This document shows positions 1 through 30,597 of a stretch of DNA of 64,000 bases, in pieces. Source of the stretch: Candidatus Iainarchaeum sp. (GTDB taxonomy: Archaea > Iainarchaeota > Iainarchaeia > Iainarchaeales > 1-14-0-10-31-34); the NCBI GenBank assembly GCA_017609625.1, contig JAFCDN010000001.1, forward strand, positions 3,230-67,229. Direction: 5' to 3'. The translations under genes were made by a program, and so were the position numbers. The notes under the pieces are model-generated. The model saw only the letters and a program-made list of their open reading frames with translations. It searched no databases and was not told where the DNA came from. Position 1 is the first letter of the stretch, and each line of letters starts with the position of its first letter.

Positions 1-63
1 CTCAGTCGGTAGAGCACCGGCCTTTTAAGCCGGGTGTCGAGGGTTCGAGTCCCTTCGGACTCG
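1..63 (+). tRNA. tRNA-Lys(UUU), 5' end truncated by window edge
   Basis: D arm (ctcagtcggtagagc), anticodon stem CCGGC/GCCGG with loop CTTTTAA, T arm GAGGG-TTCGAGT-CCCTT, 3' acceptor strand CGGACTC-G. Confidence 0.93.
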
Positions 64-97
64 TTTCGCGGTTTCGTCCGTGAATAACGAGAAATGT

Positions 98-122
98 CAA
101 GCCATTGCTTTGCAATGGCTTG
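98..122. terminator. Perfect hairpin downstream of tRNA-Lys(UUU), possible terminator or processing signal
   Basis: CAAGCCATTGC-TTT-GCAATGGCTTG inverted repeat followed by a T-rich tract. Confidence 0.45.
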
Positions 123-183
123 TTAATTTTCACTTCTTCTTTCTTAAAAGTTTTGCAGTTTAATTTTTAAAGCACAAATAAAT

Positions 184-256
184 GGGCCCGTAGCTCAGTC
201 GGTAGAGCACATGGCTCTTAACCATGGGGTCGGGGGTTCGAATCCCTTCGGGCTCG
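184..256 (+). tRNA. tRNA-Lys(CUU)
   Basis: Full cloverleaf: GGGCCCG/CGGGCTC acceptor stem (G2:U71), anticodon stem CATGG/CCATG with loop CTCTTAA, TTCGAAT T loop; CCA not encoded. Confidence 0.96.
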
Positions 257-284
257 TAAACTTTTAAGAAAAGTTTAAGCAAAA
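257..284 (+). repeat. REP-like palindrome plus CAAAA tail (dispersed family)
   Basis: TAAACTTTT-AAG-AAAAGTTTA-AG-CAAAA; related copies at about 25068, 25564, 25634, 40681, 44854 and 53625. Confidence 0.6.
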
Positions 285-382
285 TGCGCGGGACAAGCCC
301 GTGCTGTTTCGCTGTTTAAGCACGAGACACTATCTTTGCTTTGCTTGATAGGGCTTTTTTCAGAGGCAGTTAGGTTTGGTTT

Positions 383-1156
383 TTGTTTAAAAACAAAAAA
401 AAACAATGTTTGTTAATGCTGCCTTTAGTAACTTATTCTGATTTAGCTAAGACTTATCCAAAGAATAATAAGCTGAAATTTGATAACAGAGTGAACTCTT
501 GGTTACCTTTATTTCCTTCTCCTGTTTTAGCAGGAATTGTTGCGGATTTGATGGCAGATGGCAACCTTTAAGGCCCTCCCAAATGGAGGTTTGACTATTG
601 TTCAAAACACTCTAAAGAATTGAACAGATTTGGAAACACAGTTTTTTCTGTATTTGGTTTAAAAGGAACAATTCGCCCCGGCACAACTAATAAATACAAC
701 ACTAAAAATTATGGTGTAAACTGCAGGCCTCTTGCAAAAACTTTGTTTTTGATAGGTGTTCCTTATGGAAATAAAGTATTGAAAAAATATTTAATCCCTA
801 ATTGGATTTTAAATGATAAAGATTGTTTTAGATTTTTTATTAGAAGATATTTTGATTGTGAACGTTCTATTGATTTAAAGAAAAAGTCCCTATCAGTTGA
901 GGTTCACAAATCAACAGAACTAATTGAAAACTCATTTGTTTTTCTTAATCAGTTTAAGCAGGGACTTCTCAAGCATTTTGATATAAAAACTATTAATCCA
1001 TTTAAATTGTCTTTGAAAGTGAAAAGAAAGTCAGGAGCGACAGTACAAGCCACAAGAATAAAAATCACAAGAAGAGAAAACATGGAAAAATTTTGTGCCG
1101 AAATAGGTTTTAACAGCAAGCTTAAAATGGAAAAGCTAAAATCAACCATATCTTAA
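383..1156 (+). pseudogene. Free-standing LAGLIDADG homing-endonuclease-like gene with one in-frame TAA (569-571)
   Basis: ORFs 383-571 and 620-1156 are in the same frame and the 16 codons between them are open (GPPKWRFDYCSKHSKE). Motif 1 LAGIVADLMADGNL; motif 2 FIRRYFDCERSI preceded by IPNWI; C-terminal F.AEIGF.SKLK. Likely start is ATG 416. Confidence 0.8.
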
Positions 1157-1195
1157 AAAACTTTCTTCCACCTAATTTTATGAGGTTGAGTCCCT

Positions 1196-1314
1196 GGGAA
1201 TTCTTCTAAGATTATTATTCATTATTGTTTTGGTTGAACCAGTGCGGTAGCTCAGCCTGGGAGAGCACACGGTTGAAGACCGTGGTGTCGTGGGTCCAAA
1301 TCCCACCCGTCCCA
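1196..1314 (+). tRNA. tRNA-Phe(GAA) with a predicted intron at position 4/5
   Basis: Anticodon stem CACGG/CCGTG with loop TTGAAGA; D arm GCTC/GAGC; T stem GTGGG/CCCAC. Joining exon 1 GGGA (1196-1199) to exon 2 (1245-1314) gives acceptor stem GGGACGG/CCGTCCC and discriminator A. Confidence 0.88.
1200..1244 (+). other. 45-nt tRNA intron bounded by a bulge-helix-bulge motif
   Basis: Central helix CTGG (1194-1197)/CCAG (1239-1242); bulges GA^A (1198-1200) and TG^C (1243-1245); inner helix TTC/GAA; outer helix CC/GG. Confidence 0.82.
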
Positions 1315-1378
1315 TTTTTTTCTTTTTAAACATCCTTAGCGTTTTTTAAATTCTTCTCAACTTATTTTGAAAGGTTTT

Positions 1379-2665
1379 ATGAATTCAACCTTAATTATTG
1401 GCTCGCAGTTCGGCGACGAAGGAAAAGGAAAAATCGTTGACTGTTTGGCAGAGAAATCTGACTGTGTTGTAAGGTTCCAGGGAGCAAACAATGCAGGCCA
1501 CACTGTAGTGGTTGACGGAGAAAAATTCAAACTACACCTGCTTCCTTCAGGCGTAGTAAGAAAAAAACGTTCTTTGATTGGAACTGGGGTTTGTATTGAC
1601 CCAAGAGTATTAAAAAAAGAAATTGACGGGTTAAAAGAAAAAGGAATTGAAGTCAATCTTGGAATTGATCCAAGAAGCCAGATAATAATGCCCTGGCATA
1701 ATGTGATTGATGTAGGAAAAGAAGAAGCACTAAAAGAAAAAAACATTGGAACCACAAGAAGAGGAGTTGGCCCGTGCTATGCTGACAGAGCTTCAAGAAT
1801 TGGAATCCGTTTTGATGATTTAGTTGATGAAAACCGGTTCAAAGAAAAACTTGCATTCAATTATTCTTACTATAAAAACATCTGTGAAAACATTTTAGGA
1901 AAAACAATAGAATTTACAGAAGAAGAAGTTTTTCAAGAATACTTTGCTTTAGGAAAAGAATTCAAAAACATGCTTACAGATGTTTCAATTGAAGTAAATC
2001 AATTATTAGACAAAAAAAAGAAAGTATTGTTTGAAGGGGCACAGGGAACTTTATTAGACAATGATTTTGGCACTTATCCTTTTGTTACTTCTTCTCACCC
2101 GATTTCTGGTGCGGCAACAGTTGGGGTGGGGATGTCTCCAAAAAGACTGGAAAGAATTATTGGAATAGTTAAAGCTTATACTACTAGAGTTGGTTCAGGT
2201 CCTTTTCCCACAGAACTGCATGAAAAAGAAGCAGATTTTTTAAGGAATGCAGGCAATGAATTTGGAACAACAACCGGCAGAGCTAGAAGAGTAGGCTGGC
2301 TTGATTTGCCAATGCTTAGAATGGCCCAAAGATTAAATGGTTTTACTGAATTAGGGCTAACAAAATTAGATGTTTTAAGTGGAATAAAAGAATTAAAAAT
2401 AGCAGATTCTTACACTTTAGAAGGAAAAAAAGTTTTAGAATTTCCTTATGCAAACCATTTGGTTCAAAAATGCAAGCCAAACTACAAAGAATTTGATGGC
2501 TTTACTTTAGAAGACAAAGAGAGAGATGAACTCAGAAAAAATGGTTTTGGCGCATTAGACGAAAACGCAAAAAAATACATTTCTTTTATTGAAAAACAAC
2601 TAAAAGTTCCAATAAAAACAGTTTCTTTTGGCGCAGAAAGAAAAGACACTTTAACAAGAGATTAA
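1379..2665 (+). CDS. purA: Adenylosuccinate synthetase (long, bacterial-type)
   Basis: QFGDEGKGK, GANNAGHT, FEGAQG, GTYPFVTSS, EFGTTTGRARRVGWLD. Confidence 0.97.
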   Translation: MNSTLIIGSQFGDEGKGKIVDCLAEKSDCVVRFQGANNAGHTVVVDGEKFKLHLLPSGVVRKKRSLIGTGVCIDPRVLKKEIDGLKEKGIEVNLGIDPRSQIIMPWHNVIDVGKEEALKEKNIGTTRRGVGPCYADRASRIGIRFDDLVDENRFKEKLAFNYSYYKNICENILGKTIEFTEEEVFQEYFALGKEFKNMLTDVSIEVNQLLDKKKKVLFEGAQGTLLDNDFGTYPFVTSSHPISGAATVGVGMSPKRLERIIGIVKAYTTRVGSGPFPTELHEKEADFLRNAGNEFGTTTGRARRVGWLDLPMLRMAQRLNGFTELGLTKLDVLSGIKELKIADSYTLEGKKVLEFPYANHLVQKCKPNYKEFDGFTLEDKERDELRKNGFGALDENAKKYISFIEKQLKVPIKTVSFGAERKDTLTRD

Positions 2666-3999
2666 AATTTTGTTAATTCAACAGCCTTTCCTATATATGT
2701 TTCTGGCTTTAATTTTAAAAGCTTCTTTTTTTCTTTTTCACTCAAAGAACTTTTCTTAATAAATTCTCTCAGCATTTCCAGAGAAAGTTTTTTTCCTCTG
2801 GAAAAATCTTTCAATTTCTCATAAGCATTTTCATCTTTTTCTTTCCTCATCACAGTCTGAATTGCCTCAGTTAAAGTTTCAGGGTGTTTTTTTAAATCTT
2901 CAAGTATTTCTTTTCTGTCTGCATGGATTCTTTTCAGGCCTTTAATACACATTTTTATTCCTAAAATTGAATGAGCAAAAGCTGTTCCATAATTTCTCTT
3001 GACTGTTGAATCTGAAAGGTCGCGCTGCATTCTGGACTTTTGCAAACGAGAACTCAAAAAATACAACAGATTATTTGCTAGTAACAGATTCCCTTCGCTG
3101 TTTTCAAACTGTATTGGGTTGATTTTATGTGGCATTATAGAAGAACCGGTTTCTTTTCCGATCTTTTTCTGTAAAACATAATTTTTGCTTATATACATCC
3201 ACAAATCAGTATCTAAATCAATCACAATATTATTGAGCAAAGCCATTTCATTTAAAATTCTTGAAATATTTTCATGAACAACAATTTGGGTTGTTAAACT
3301 CTTGTGTTCAAATCCAAAGCTTTCGACAAACTCTTTGCTTAATTTTATCCAATTTTTTTCTGGAAAAGCAATCTGCATTGAGTTAAAATTTCCTGAAGCA
3401 GAATTCATTTTTCCAGGCAGTTTTAGTTTTTTCAGGTGCTCTAAACTTTCATTTATTCTAGAATAAAAAACTGCAATTTCTTTTCCAAAAGTTGTGGGAG
3501 AAGCAGGCTGTCCGTGTGTGTGAGCAAGCATTGCAGTTTTCTTTTCTTTAGAGGCAATTTTCTTCAAACTTTTGAGCAACCCAGAACTCTCAGTTATGTA
3601 TAAGTTAAGTCCTTTTTTTAGCTGAATTGAATTAGCTAAGTTATTTACATCTTCTGATGTCAGCCCAAAATGTACAAAACTTTCAGCATTTTTCAATGAA
3701 CTTTTTTCTATTTTTTTTCTTATAAAATATTCTACTGCTTTGACATCATGATTTGTTTTTCTTTCAATCTTTTTTATCTCTTCAAAGTCTTTTTCATTAA
3801 ATTTTTCATAGAGTTTTTCAAGCAGTTTTTTTTCTTTTGAGCTAAACTTTTTAATAACTCCTTTTTTTGATAAAAAAATCAGATACTTTGCTTCAACTTC
3901 TGTACGGAATTTTTGCATTGCATATTCAGAGAAAATTTCCTGCAGTTCAATCAGTTTATTTGAATATCTTCCGTCTATTGGGGAAACAGCTTTATTCAT
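2662..3999 (-). CDS. purB: Adenylosuccinate lyase
   Basis: SPIDGRY, TNHDVKAVEY, HFGLTSED, GSSIMPHKINP, RMQRDLSDSTV. Confidence 0.96.
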   Translation of the reverse strand: MNKAVSPIDGRYSNKLIELQEIFSEYAMQKFRTEVEAKYLIFLSKKGVIKKFSSKEKKLLEKLYEKFNEKDFEEIKKIERKTNHDVKAVEYFIRKKIEKSSLKNAESFVHFGLTSEDVNNLANSIQLKKGLNLYITESSGLLKSLKKIASKEKKTAMLAHTHGQPASPTTFGKEIAVFYSRINESLEHLKKLKLPGKMNSASGNFNSMQIAFPEKNWIKLSKEFVESFGFEHKSLTTQIVVHENISRILNEMALLNNIVIDLDTDLWMYISKNYVLQKKIGKETGSSIMPHKINPIQFENSEGNLLLANNLLYFLSSRLQKSRMQRDLSDSTVKRNYGTAFAHSILGIKMCIKGLKRIHADRKEILEDLKKHPETLTEAIQTVMRKEKDENAYEKLKDFSRGKKLSLEMLREFIKKSSLSEKEKKKLLKLKPETYIGKAVELTKF

Positions 4000-29773: not shown

Positions 29774-30019
29774 ATGGTTGAATTAGAATTAGGATTGATT
29801 GCAATCGGAGCAGGAATTGCTTTAGCCGGAAGTGCTTATGCTGCAGCAATCGCAGAAAAAGAAATCGGAACAGCAGCAGTAGGTGCAATGGCAGAAAAAG
29901 AAGAATTATTCGGAAAAGGATTAATTCTTACAGTAATTCCAGAAACAATCGTTATCTTTGGATTGGTTGTTGCAATTATGATTCTGGGTTTAGCTGACAA
30001 AATACCTGTAACAGGATGA
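29774..30019 (+). CDS. atpK: A/V-type ATP synthase proteolipid subunit K (c)
   Basis: Single helical hairpin with IPETIVIFG. Confidence 0.94.
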   Translation: MVELELGLIAIGAGIALAGSAYAAAIAEKEIGTAAVGAMAEKEELFGKGLILTVIPETIVIFGLVVAIMILGLADKIPVTG

Positions 30020-30036
30020 TCTTTAAGGTTTTTTAA

Positions 30037-30597
30037 ATGTCTTTAGAAAATGTAATTAAAGAAATAAATCTAGAAGCAGGAAAAAAAGCAAACACAATAA
30101 TCCAGGAAGGAAAAAAAGAAGCAAACTCAATAATACAGAAGACGCAGGAAAAAGTAGATATCTCCAGAGAAAAAACAGTCAAAAAAACAGGGGAAATAGT
30201 TTCTTCAATGCAGAGAACAGAAATTGCTTCTTTGAAACTGTTCTTAAAAAAACAAAAGCTAAATGCAAAAAAAGAAGTGATTGACTCTTTGTTTAAGGAA
30301 GCAGAAAAAAATCTGAAAAAACTTCCTGAAAAACAAAAAGAAAAAATCCTGAAAAAACTTTTGCATAAAGGAAAAGAAGAAGTAAATGCAGAATATTTTT
30401 ACTGTAATTCAGCAGACAAAAAAACAATCCAAAAACTTTCAAAGCTGAAATTCAAATCAAATATTGACTGTATTGGCGGTTTTGTTTTGGAAAACAAAGA
30501 AGAAACAATCCGTTCAGACCAGACTTTTGACTTAATCCTGGAAAAAGTAAGAGAAAAATGCATTAGTGAAATTTCTTTAAGGGTGTTTAAGGAATGA
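30037..30597 (+). CDS. atpE: A/V-type ATP synthase subunit E
   Basis: MSLENVIKEI, IGGFVLEN...DQTF; operon position. Confidence 0.9.
   Translation: MSLENVIKEINLEAGKKANTIIQEGKKEANSIIQKTQEKVDISREKTVKKTGEIVSSMQRTEIASLKLFLKKQKLNAKKEVIDSLFKEAEKNLKKLPEKQKEKILKKLLHKGKEEVNAEYFYCNSADKKTIQKLSKLKFKSNIDCIGGFVLENKEETIRSDQTFDLILEKVREKCISEISLRVFKE

Follow-up and report, generated by a model that had tools for sequence, protein, structure and literature searches.

Archaeal enzymes of the LAGLIDADG type are known within the bulge-helix-bulge (BHB) introns of rRNA genes and within inteins, and to our knowledge they have not been found beside tRNA genes. Here we describe a locus at which such a gene stands alone, just 5′ of a tRNA-Phe gene that is split by a short BHB intron. 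The locus lies in a stretch of 64,000 nucleotides (hereafter 'the window') of contig JAFCDN010000001.1 from assembly GCA_017609625.1, a 91.7% complete genome of Candidatus Iainarchaeum sp. that is labelled G000 below; positions given without a contig or locus name are those of the window, on the plus strand. We consider it likely that the nuclease gene, the tRNA leader, the first exon and the intron make up one homing unit that has since decayed.

Homing in trans has been described in phages, where the free-standing MobE endonuclease is encoded beside the endonuclease-less group I intron of T4 nrdB, as outlined in PMC2790892. The window resembles such collaborative homing in that a free-standing endonuclease gene and a short intron encoding no endonuclease are separated by no more than recombination distance, in that nuclease and intron are inherited together, and in a proposed cut that would fall at or near the intron site of intron-less alleles. 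Further cases are reportedly provided by mobE/nrdA of Aeh1 and by F-CphI/psbA of cyanophages. However, the phage introns are self-splicing ribozymes in protein genes and the phage nucleases are HNH or Endo VII-like, whereas the window has a 45-nucleotide archaeal BHB intron that is predicted to be removed by a host protein, a chromosomal archaeal tRNA gene as host, a LAGLIDADG nuclease, and a first exon of only four nucleotides that apparently travels with the nuclease.

Other comparisons can be made with archaeal enzymes. I-DmoI and I-Tsp061I share with the window gene a monomeric two-motif LAGLIDADG fold (Foldseek E values of 2.6e-7 and 6.5e-7), an archaeal host and an association with BHB introns, at a sequence identity of 13-16%, but their genes lie inside long rRNA introns, whereas the window gene lies outside, 5′ of the tRNA, beside an intron too short to encode anything. 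The best structural matches (E 1.3e-10) and the best profile matches are archaeal intein endonucleases (TliVMA, 7qss; PI-PfuI, 1dq3; the RtcB, IF2 and RFC inteins), from which the window gene differs in having neither Hint splicing domains nor a host protein. Phage T4 SegB is a free-standing GIY-YIG endonuclease encoded in a tRNA gene cluster. The two have in common that a homing endonuclease is encoded by a free-standing gene and that its preferential inheritance is bound up with a region of tRNA genes, although SegB belongs to a different nuclease family and to a phage, and no intron is involved. Finally, the atp6 genes of Allomyces and Glomus are said to be accompanied by mobile endonuclease open reading frames (ORFs) of fungal mitochondria that supply a substitute gene end. 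There too an endonuclease cassette adjoins an essential gene and seems to provide a replacement end, but what is replaced there, in frame, is the 3′ end of a protein-coding gene, whereas the window cassette would provide a 5′ leader and four nucleotides of a tRNA that are joined by RNA splicing.

Our full-text literature searches found no paper that links LAGLIDADG genes to archaeal tRNA introns or that describes such an arrangement. A 2026 preprint on the tRNA introns of Asgard archaea tested copying, mobile elements and reverse transcription and states that intron arrival 'remains open' (10.64898/2026.10.13.758758); a term search of its main text found neither 'homing' nor 'LAGLIDADG'. The origin and spread of non-canonical archaeal tRNA introns is an open question, and we believe that the present locus offers a concrete and testable route. 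If our interpretation is correct, collaborative homing would extend from the self-splicing introns of phages to the BHB introns of archaea, and if it holds generally, there would be a DNA-level route by which archaeal tRNA introns arrive. The same interpretation would account for the many tRNA genes of DPANN archaea that escape standard tRNA finders. One genus supplies matched carrier, alternative-carrier and empty alleles as ready substrates for a cleavage assay, and the nuclease family (family A below) could yield new long-target nucleases directed against a conserved tRNA sequence.

The split tRNA-Phe gene and the nuclease gene

When tRNA-Phe(GAA) is modelled by ARAGORN (whose call covers 1241-1314) and Rfam, mismatches are left at acceptor pairs 1-72 and 3-70. 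Joining GGGA at 1196-1199, which is complementary to the 3′ acceptor strand CCGTCCC, to the CGG at 1245 gives a perfect seven-pair acceptor stem (GGGACGG/CCGTCCC), with exon 1 corresponding to tRNA positions 1-4, exon 2 (1245-1314) to positions 5-73 and a 45-nucleotide intron (1200-1244) between positions 4 and 5. In a minimum-free-energy fold over 1170-1325, nucleotides 1183-1193 of the 5′ leader (1183-1195) pair with 1246-1258 in the D-arm region of exon 2 to form an outer helix. Nucleotides 1194-1195 open a central helix of four base pairs, CUGG (1194-1197) with CCAG (1239-1242), there are two three-nucleotide bulges, GA|A (1198-1200) and UG|C (1243-1245), and the inner helix opens with UUC/GAA. 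Checked against the BHB motif, the central helix has 4/4 pairs, the inner helix 3/3 and the outer helix 2/3, with a nine-base-pair helix lying beyond the outer one, across a two-nucleotide bulge. BHB elements are cut after the second nucleotide of each bulge, and this rule, applied to the fold, therefore predicts the removal of exactly 1200-1244. The original prediction of a tRNA split by an intron at the 4/5 position is confirmed both by this geometry and by the restored acceptor stem, and the pairing of leader with D-arm is also present at homologous loci.

A self-splicing group I intron was considered and rejected, the intron being 45 nucleotides long with a BHB motif; an Rfam scan of 1-3000 returned tRNA matches and a single chance snoRNA-like match only. 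The split gene is the only tRNA-Phe gene found in the 91.7% complete G000 (one among 45 ARAGORN calls, with one exon-2 match in the genome). The catalytic domain of the splicing endonuclease EndA is represented in the genome by one PF01974 match over the cut-off (94.3 bits, in a frame of 183 amino acids, at 49618-49878 of contig C38).

The nuclease gene (416-1156) is a pseudogene for a free-standing, single-chain LAGLIDADG protein. Its single frame (383-1156) is broken once, by a TAA at 569-571, and ends at its own TAA at 1154-1156. The open frame reaches back to a TTG at 383, but ATG 416, which matches the starts of homologues and gives 246 codons, is likely to be the true start. Motif 1 (LAGIVADLMADG, 527-562) includes Asp59-Gly60, which is invariant in an alignment of 28 family-A proteins, and is directly followed by the internal TAA. 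Motif 2 (FFIRRYFDCER, 833-865) includes Cys159 and Glu160, conserved in at least 90% of the family. Both of the acidic residues that end the motif helices, Asp59 and Glu160, are present in the window copy.

The original prediction had described a two-motif LAGLIDADG gene outside any intein, lying between tRNA-Lys and tRNA-Phe and ending 39 nucleotides before exon 1, with one TAA just after motif 1 and an unusual motif 2 reading DCER. The motifs and the single nonsense codon are as described, and the coordinates agree (1157-1195 separates the stop codon from exon 1, and 43 nucleotides separate the gene end from the intron). The reading DCER was also correct, whereas its supposed departure from a fixed motif was not: the family has D-C-E followed by a variable residue, and it is only at this variable position after Glu160 that the window copy has its Arg.

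Pfam recognizes LAGLIDADG_3 alone in the frame, barely over the cut-off (E 8.6e-5; 23.2 bits against 22.5), and NCBIfam matches the protein to the endonuclease regions of inteins from archaeal RtcB, IF2 and RFC (NF038162, E 8.5e-12). A Hint domain is absent from the Pfam scan of the nuclease frame, which is bounded by stop codons and by intergenic DNA between two tRNA genes, and the gene is therefore free-standing. With no Hint blocks and no host protein, an intein-borne endonuclease was rejected. A protein search retrieved 28 proteins with E ≤0.001 among 414 candidates, one of them being the window's own fragment of 178 amino acids. The other 27, mostly of about 246 amino acids and from DPANN metagenome bins, are 41-74% identical to the window protein with E values of 6e-122 to 6e-42, and the open frame is therefore not a product of chance. 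An AlphaFold2 model was made of the closest intact homologue (P0001, 74% identity, from an unplaced contig), standing in for the window copy. This model (predicted local distance difference test score 94.9; predicted template modelling score 0.92) has the pseudo-symmetric alpha-beta-beta-alpha-beta-beta-alpha double-domain fold, and Foldseek matches it with probability 1.00 to TliVMA, PI-PfuI, I-Tsp061I, I-DmoI and I-SceI.

Judged from these comparisons of sequence, 416-1156 is best explained as a recently inactivated, tRNA-Phe-specific, free-standing LAGLIDADG homing endonuclease gene. The codon at 569-571 is Gln in all 27 homologues and is CAA in the copy of another species of the genus (G012), which makes the window lesion a change from CAA to TAA. 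It could be argued that the gene is intact and that the TAA, which was read from the assembly sequence, is an assembly or sequencing error or is decoded as glutamine, particularly since one transition separates it from the CAA of the family. However, TAA ends this same gene where its homologues end, and it is the commonest stop codon in the window (22 of the 36 ORFs of at least 200 amino acids). Recoding is therefore unlikely, and an alternative genetic code was rejected on these grounds. Moreover, the same-genus copy is broken in a different way, so decay within the lineage is plausible, and we regard an intact gene as unlikely.

Presence and absence of the unit within the genus

The syntenic order tRNA-Lys, tRNA-Lys, variable slot, tRNA-Phe, purA was recovered in five other species of the genus, and the slot is found in several states. 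In the window it holds the family-A gene with its one TAA, next to a tRNA-Phe gene with the 4/5 intron. In G012 it holds a family-A gene with CAA at the window's TAA codon and a one-nucleotide insertion upstream, next to a tRNA-Phe gene with the 4/5 intron, a D-loop intron and two more introns. In G011 and G014 it holds a different LAGLIDADG gene (family B, with motifs LAYFVGYFLGDGGL and FIRGVFDADGDT), and the tRNA-Phe gene has a contiguous acceptor stem and a D-loop intron of about 43 nucleotides. In G013 and G015 the slot is empty, reduced to spacers of 92 and 38 nucleotides, and tRNA-Phe is intron-less. At this locus, family A is thus present in two of six genomes of the genus and the slot is empty in two of six.

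BLAST homology between the window and the two empty alleles begins at 1247 and 1244, which is the border between intron and exon 2. The nuclease gene, the leader, exon 1 and the intron therefore behave as one indel, and the intron has the look of a component of this one insertion, not of a partner in its own right. Within the genus, acceptor strands start with GGGA in the carriers and with GAGA or GAGG in the empty alleles, and the sequence TTAAAAA(A/G)CTTTCTT stands beside the nuclease stop codon in G000 and G012 and is missing from the empty alleles.

The extent of the indel, the different acceptor starts and this shared sequence would all be at home in an explanation by which a nuclease cassette brought along a promoter, a leader and the first four nucleotides of the tRNA, with the 'intron' being a spliceable seam rather than an immunity device and the nuclease target perhaps lying elsewhere; such a cassette would be akin to the mobile endonuclease ORFs of fungal mitochondria. 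We give this explanation a minor share of the probability, somewhat larger than that of an intact gene. It largely overlaps with the homing explanation that we prefer and does not exclude it, and alone it gives no account of the two nuclease families that each have their own fixed intron site (see below).

The two family-A copies of the genus bear different lesions, a TAA in G000 and a one-nucleotide frameshift in G012, and were therefore inactivated independently. The G012 copy (L009) is one of two interrupted frames, the other being L032, among the 30 family-A loci that were fetched.

Family A and tRNA-Phe across DPANN archaea

These 30 loci came from a scan of one genome per species, and one of them (L025) is cut by a contig end. 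The remaining 29 frames are complete, and 27 of them are uninterrupted. Plain ARAGORN makes a clean tRNA-Phe call in only nine of the 30 loci, missing most of these genes because they carry introns. When an exon-2 profile is combined with reading of the sequence, a tRNA-Phe gene is found to adjoin the family-A gene in all 29 evaluable loci, 20 of which are co-oriented with tRNA-Phe just downstream, eight divergent and one convergent.

Intron classes were assigned by spliced alignment, by the BHB check and by eye. Fourteen loci have an intron at the 4/5 position (L007, L009-L011, L015-L019, L021, L022, L031, L035 and L036), three at 3/4 (L020, L026 and L029) and four at 9/10 (L008, L012, L024 and L032), which places an intron in the 5′ acceptor region at 21 of the 29 loci. 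Two loci (L013 and L014) have introns elsewhere only, and six (L023, L027, L028, L030, L033 and L034) have a wholly intron-less tRNA-Phe. The BHB check resolved 17 of the 21 acceptor-region introns plus the window, with L012, L015, L016 and L017 being classed by eye; the spliced alignment had mis-set the 3′ acceptor strand where there was a T-arm intron or several introns (L012-L017 and L067). Of the ten helix positions, six form a pair at every one of the 18 scored loci, five of these with two to five pair types and one (c4) as an invariant G-C, although the pairing in this covariation table is somewhat inflated by the selection of candidates on motif score.

Introns are 31-32 nucleotides long in eight of the 12 scored 4/5 loci (against 45 in the window), and intron ends are alike across distant lineages. 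At L012 (~3260-3300) and L024 (~3280-3320), the nuclease frame passes through the leader and exon 1 (GGGACAGTA) and stops inside the 9/10 intron. These features, too, would be expected if the nuclease cassette had supplied a replacement 5′ end to the tRNA gene, whereas the absence of any visible old 5′ end upstream in 21 co-oriented loci speaks against it, with the reservation that a remnant of four nucleotides would be undetectable.

Co-occurrence in the order

Family A proper (E <1e-60) is present in 12 of 196 genomes of the order. Eight of these 12 carriers (G000, G012, G071, G167, G080, G046, G092 and G068) have an intron in the acceptor region of tRNA-Phe. Two batches of control loci were drawn by searching with exon 2, the start of which lies beyond the 4/5 site. 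In the first batch, made up of the 29 best exon-2 matches other than the window, the acceptor strand is unsplit in 28. The exception, L108, is also the sole locus of this batch with a family-A match, a remnant of 126 amino acids (E 6.5e-21) among 171 frames. LAGLIDADG Pfam families were matched by none of 125 longer frames of this batch. The second batch consisted of the next 40 ranked genomes, chosen with known carriers of family A or B (G133, G125, G068, G080 and G014) and hits at contig starts set aside, and the acceptor strand is unsplit in all 39 evaluable loci, L130 being cut. Among tRNA-Phe loci without an adjacent family-A gene, 67 of 68 are therefore unsplit and the lone exception keeps a remnant of the nuclease gene; put differently, acceptor-region introns occur at 21 of 29 carrier loci and at one of 68 non-carrier loci. 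In addition, weak LAGLIDADG-like frames lie directly 5′ of an intron-less tRNA-Phe in G120 and G112.

The four carriers of the order that have no acceptor-region intron (G124, G133, G125 and G148; L043-L046) belong to one taxonomic family. Their acceptor strands start with GGAG (A3-U70), and G148 has an intron in the D-stem, whereas in nuclease-free genomes of that family all 16 start with GGG (L087-L095, L104, L136, L139, L154, L162, L164 and L167). This difference fits a nuclease target that would include positions 3-5 and could be put out of action in two ways, by an intron or by a base change, but it could equally reflect co-transfer of the tRNA 5′ end with the nuclease gene.

Given that tRNA genes may serve as landing places or safe harbours, it seems appropriate to question whether nuclease and intron have anything to do with each other. 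DPANN tRNA introns might have been gained separately, with proximity as the only link. Consistent with this, the six intron-less family-A loci show that the two can be found apart, the frames in G120 and G112 precede intron-less genes, and other LAGLIDADG genes of G000 (on contigs C52 and C3) adjoin tRNA genes with introns at other positions. However, separate gain is difficult to reconcile with 67 of 68 nuclease-free loci that have no acceptor intron, with an exception that has a nuclease remnant, with empty and intron-less alleles at the same locus within the genus, or with two nuclease families that are each paired with one intron site. We therefore consider such independence to be improbable.

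A domesticated LAGLIDADG protein is, in our estimate, still less probable. Such a protein would be inherited vertically and act as a WhiA-like regulator of tRNA-Phe transcription or as an intron maturase. The tight synteny with tRNA-Phe across phyla and the large share of intact copies (27 of 29) are in its favour, and WhiA is among the lower-ranked Foldseek matches of the P0001 model. Against it stand the patchy distribution of family A (12 of 196 genomes in the order, two of six in the genus), the empty alleles at the same locus and the conservation of Asp and Glu at the catalytic positions. Furthermore, both copies in the genus are broken, independently, although no tRNA-Phe gene other than the split one was found. 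The nuclease protein therefore cannot be needed for splicing, and a role as maturase was rejected. An intact and vertically inherited protein under such a domesticated role, which the original prediction had named as its refutation, was thus not seen.

Family B and a second intron site

Family B was found in 12 of 196 genomes of the order at E ≤1e-25, 11 of which are true members, and internal stop codons interrupt four of the 11. Its gene encodes 323 amino acids in G011 (L067, 2887-3858, minus strand) and occupies ~1855-2790 of L073 (plus strand) in G014. In ten of the 11 members, the exception being G162, it precedes a tRNA-Phe gene whose D-loop is interrupted by an intron at a single fixed position (...CAGCCTG | intron | GGAGAGC). 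The distributions of families A and B together therefore indicate that each of two unrelated nuclease families has an intron position of its own in tRNA-Phe.

In G062 (L124, ~1640-1830) and G076 (L125, ~220-432), the D-loop intron is present and the family-B gene is absent. Alignment of these two loci with the G060 carrier is confined to the tRNA with the final 40-70 nucleotides of the nuclease gene, and to an upstream repeat, a pattern that looks like the residue expected from deletion of a nuclease gene.

Two other genomes, G012 (L009/L071, ~1790-1990) and G068 (L060), carry both the 4/5 intron and the family-B type of D-loop intron but only a family-A gene, and comparison of these sequences suggests successive invasions. 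G046 seems to have two tRNA-Phe loci, one on contig C101 (L041) with family A and a 9/10 intron and one on contig C92 (L115) with family B and a D-loop intron; these could be a real duplication or the result of a mixed bin.

A proposed route of homing and decay

We propose that the nuclease gene, the tRNA-Phe promoter and leader, the four-nucleotide first exon and the short intron would be gained and lost as one unit at the 5′ end of tRNA-Phe. The active enzyme would cut intron-less tRNA-Phe genes near acceptor-stem positions 3-5, and the break would be repaired from the carrier chromosome, so that the cut gene would receive the entire unit. The carrier's own target would be interrupted by the intron or, in some lineages, altered by substitution. 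The tRNA would remain functional, as leader, exon 1 and intron are predicted to fold into a canonical BHB that host EndA could remove. After fixation, the nuclease gene would no longer be under selection and could gain a stop codon, while the intron would persist, as it would by then be required for linking exon 1 with exon 2 of the sole tRNA-Phe gene. We infer the DNA cleavage, the cut site, the immunity and the homing pathway from sequence comparison.

Collaborative homing between this nuclease and its neighbouring intron was the core of the original prediction. The co-occurrence on which it depended is strongly positive, with three allele states in the genus and acceptor introns in eight of 12 carriers in the order as opposed to one of 68 non-carrier loci, and the decay of the nuclease gene after fixation fits the TAA of the window copy and the one-nucleotide frameshift elsewhere in the G012 copy. 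A difference from the phage precedent is that the intron here is of the protein-spliced BHB type and not self-splicing.

Several points weigh against this proposal. A carrier allele needs no intron, as six of the 29 family-A loci are wholly intron-less and two more have introns elsewhere only; in the order, this is true of the acceptor region in four of 12 carriers (G124, G125, G133 and G148), all from one taxonomic family. The first batch of controls, being the best full-length matches to exon 2, was biased towards loci without internal introns, although this bias does not extend to the 4/5 site. Owing to the relatedness of the genomes, none of the counts is one of independent events. The TAA at 569-571 could in principle be an assembly error; a search for sequencing runs returned four DNA runs, with at most 0.08 of the sampled words in each, and no RNA run. 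No left-hand remnant of a tRNA-Phe 5′ end was recognized in the 260 nucleotides upstream in 21 co-oriented loci, where one of four nucleotides would be undetectable, and the resemblance of window positions 361-380 to the tRNA start of the empty alleles is too weak to use. Upstream flanks differ between lineages, and the proposal leaves the entry of the unit into a new species unexplained. A scan of viral contigs turned up no family-A member, its only matches being three that were weak and partial (39% identity across 48 residues).

The signal for horizontal transfer is likewise only suggestive. Within the genus, the purA product of G012 is 82% identical to that of the window and that of the nuclease-free G013 is 75% identical, while the G012 nuclease is 64% identical (all nuclease identities being taken over the C-terminal 178 amino acids). 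For G071, G080 and G167, which belong to other families of the order, the corresponding values are 56%, 56% and 55% for purA and 61%, 56% and 59% for the nuclease. Such ratios point, suggestively, to horizontal movement, but 56-61% for the nuclease is close to the 55-56% of purA at this distance.

A broader extension of our proposal can be entertained, although we are inclined to doubt it more than to believe it. The non-canonical and multiple tRNA introns of DPANN archaea may in large part have been left by free-standing homing endonucleases that were tRNA-specific and invaded one after another, with the intron outliving the nuclease gene. It is conceivable, with the same reserve, that each nuclease family brings or leaves a BHB intron at its own target position. 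Serial invasion would fit three observations at the tRNA-Phe locus. Introns at 3/4, 4/5 and 9/10 accompany family A, and those in the D-loop accompany family B; G012 and G068 have both introns and family A only; and in G062 and G076 the D-loop intron persists where no more than the tail of a family-B gene is left.

Neighbouring features and other nuclease-tRNA pairs

The left edge of the variable slot is formed by a tRNA-Lys(CTT) gene at 183-257 (ARAGORN; Rfam tRNA, 69.7 bits), which is kept at the syntenic locus in all five relatives of the genus. The spacer between it and the nuclease gene (258-415) contains GC-rich hairpins at ~286-360, and no similarity was found between it and the 92- and 38-nucleotide spacers of the empty alleles. 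Pieces of the hairpin spacer (BLAST of 255-356) match many contigs of genus relatives, often after tRNA genes.

On the other side of the nuclease gene, a TATA-like box (TTAAAAAACTTTCTT, 1153-1167) overlaps the nuclease stop codon and is the probable promoter of tRNA-Phe, as judged from its sequence and position. Words of the form TTAAAAAGCTTT(T/C) occur about 30-40 nucleotides 5′ of tRNA-Phe at carrier loci, and many loci that lack the nuclease, in a different family of the order, have them at the same distance. A further word, ATGTCCAGTG or its reverse complement, is conserved 60-120 nucleotides 5′ of the nuclease start in loci of Woesearchaeota/Nanoarchaeota type. It stands 5′ of the nuclease start in L011, L021 and L022 and between divergent nuclease and tRNA genes in L013-L015, L018 and L019, and it may be a promoter, an operator or a cassette edge.

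Pairs of nuclease and tRNA genes are also found elsewhere. On contig C52 of G000, a free-standing LAGLIDADG gene (L003, 1336-2148; 270 amino acids; motifs LIGLLLGDGS and IRGLFDSDGT) ends about ten nucleotides before a tRNA gene at ~29929-30038 of the contig. This is an apparent tRNA-Gln(CTG) with a D-loop intron of about 36 nucleotides, and ARAGORN, with its intron option on, miscalls it as 'tRNA-Stop (tta)'. Owing to their introns, no tRNA was found when the other loci of G000 with a nuclease and a tRNA (L002, L003 and L006) were scanned with Rfam, which gave a chance tmRNA-like match only. A third LAGLIDADG gene of G000, on contig C3 (L006, 1177-1872; 231 amino acids; second motif FFDCES), runs into a tRNA-Ser(CGA) gene at 2419-2516 of the contig that has a 14-nucleotide intron at the canonical position. 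In G087, a LAGLIDADG-like frame (L150, 865-1548, minus strand) is followed by another tRNA, which starts with GGGCCCGTAGCTCAG and has a long insertion.

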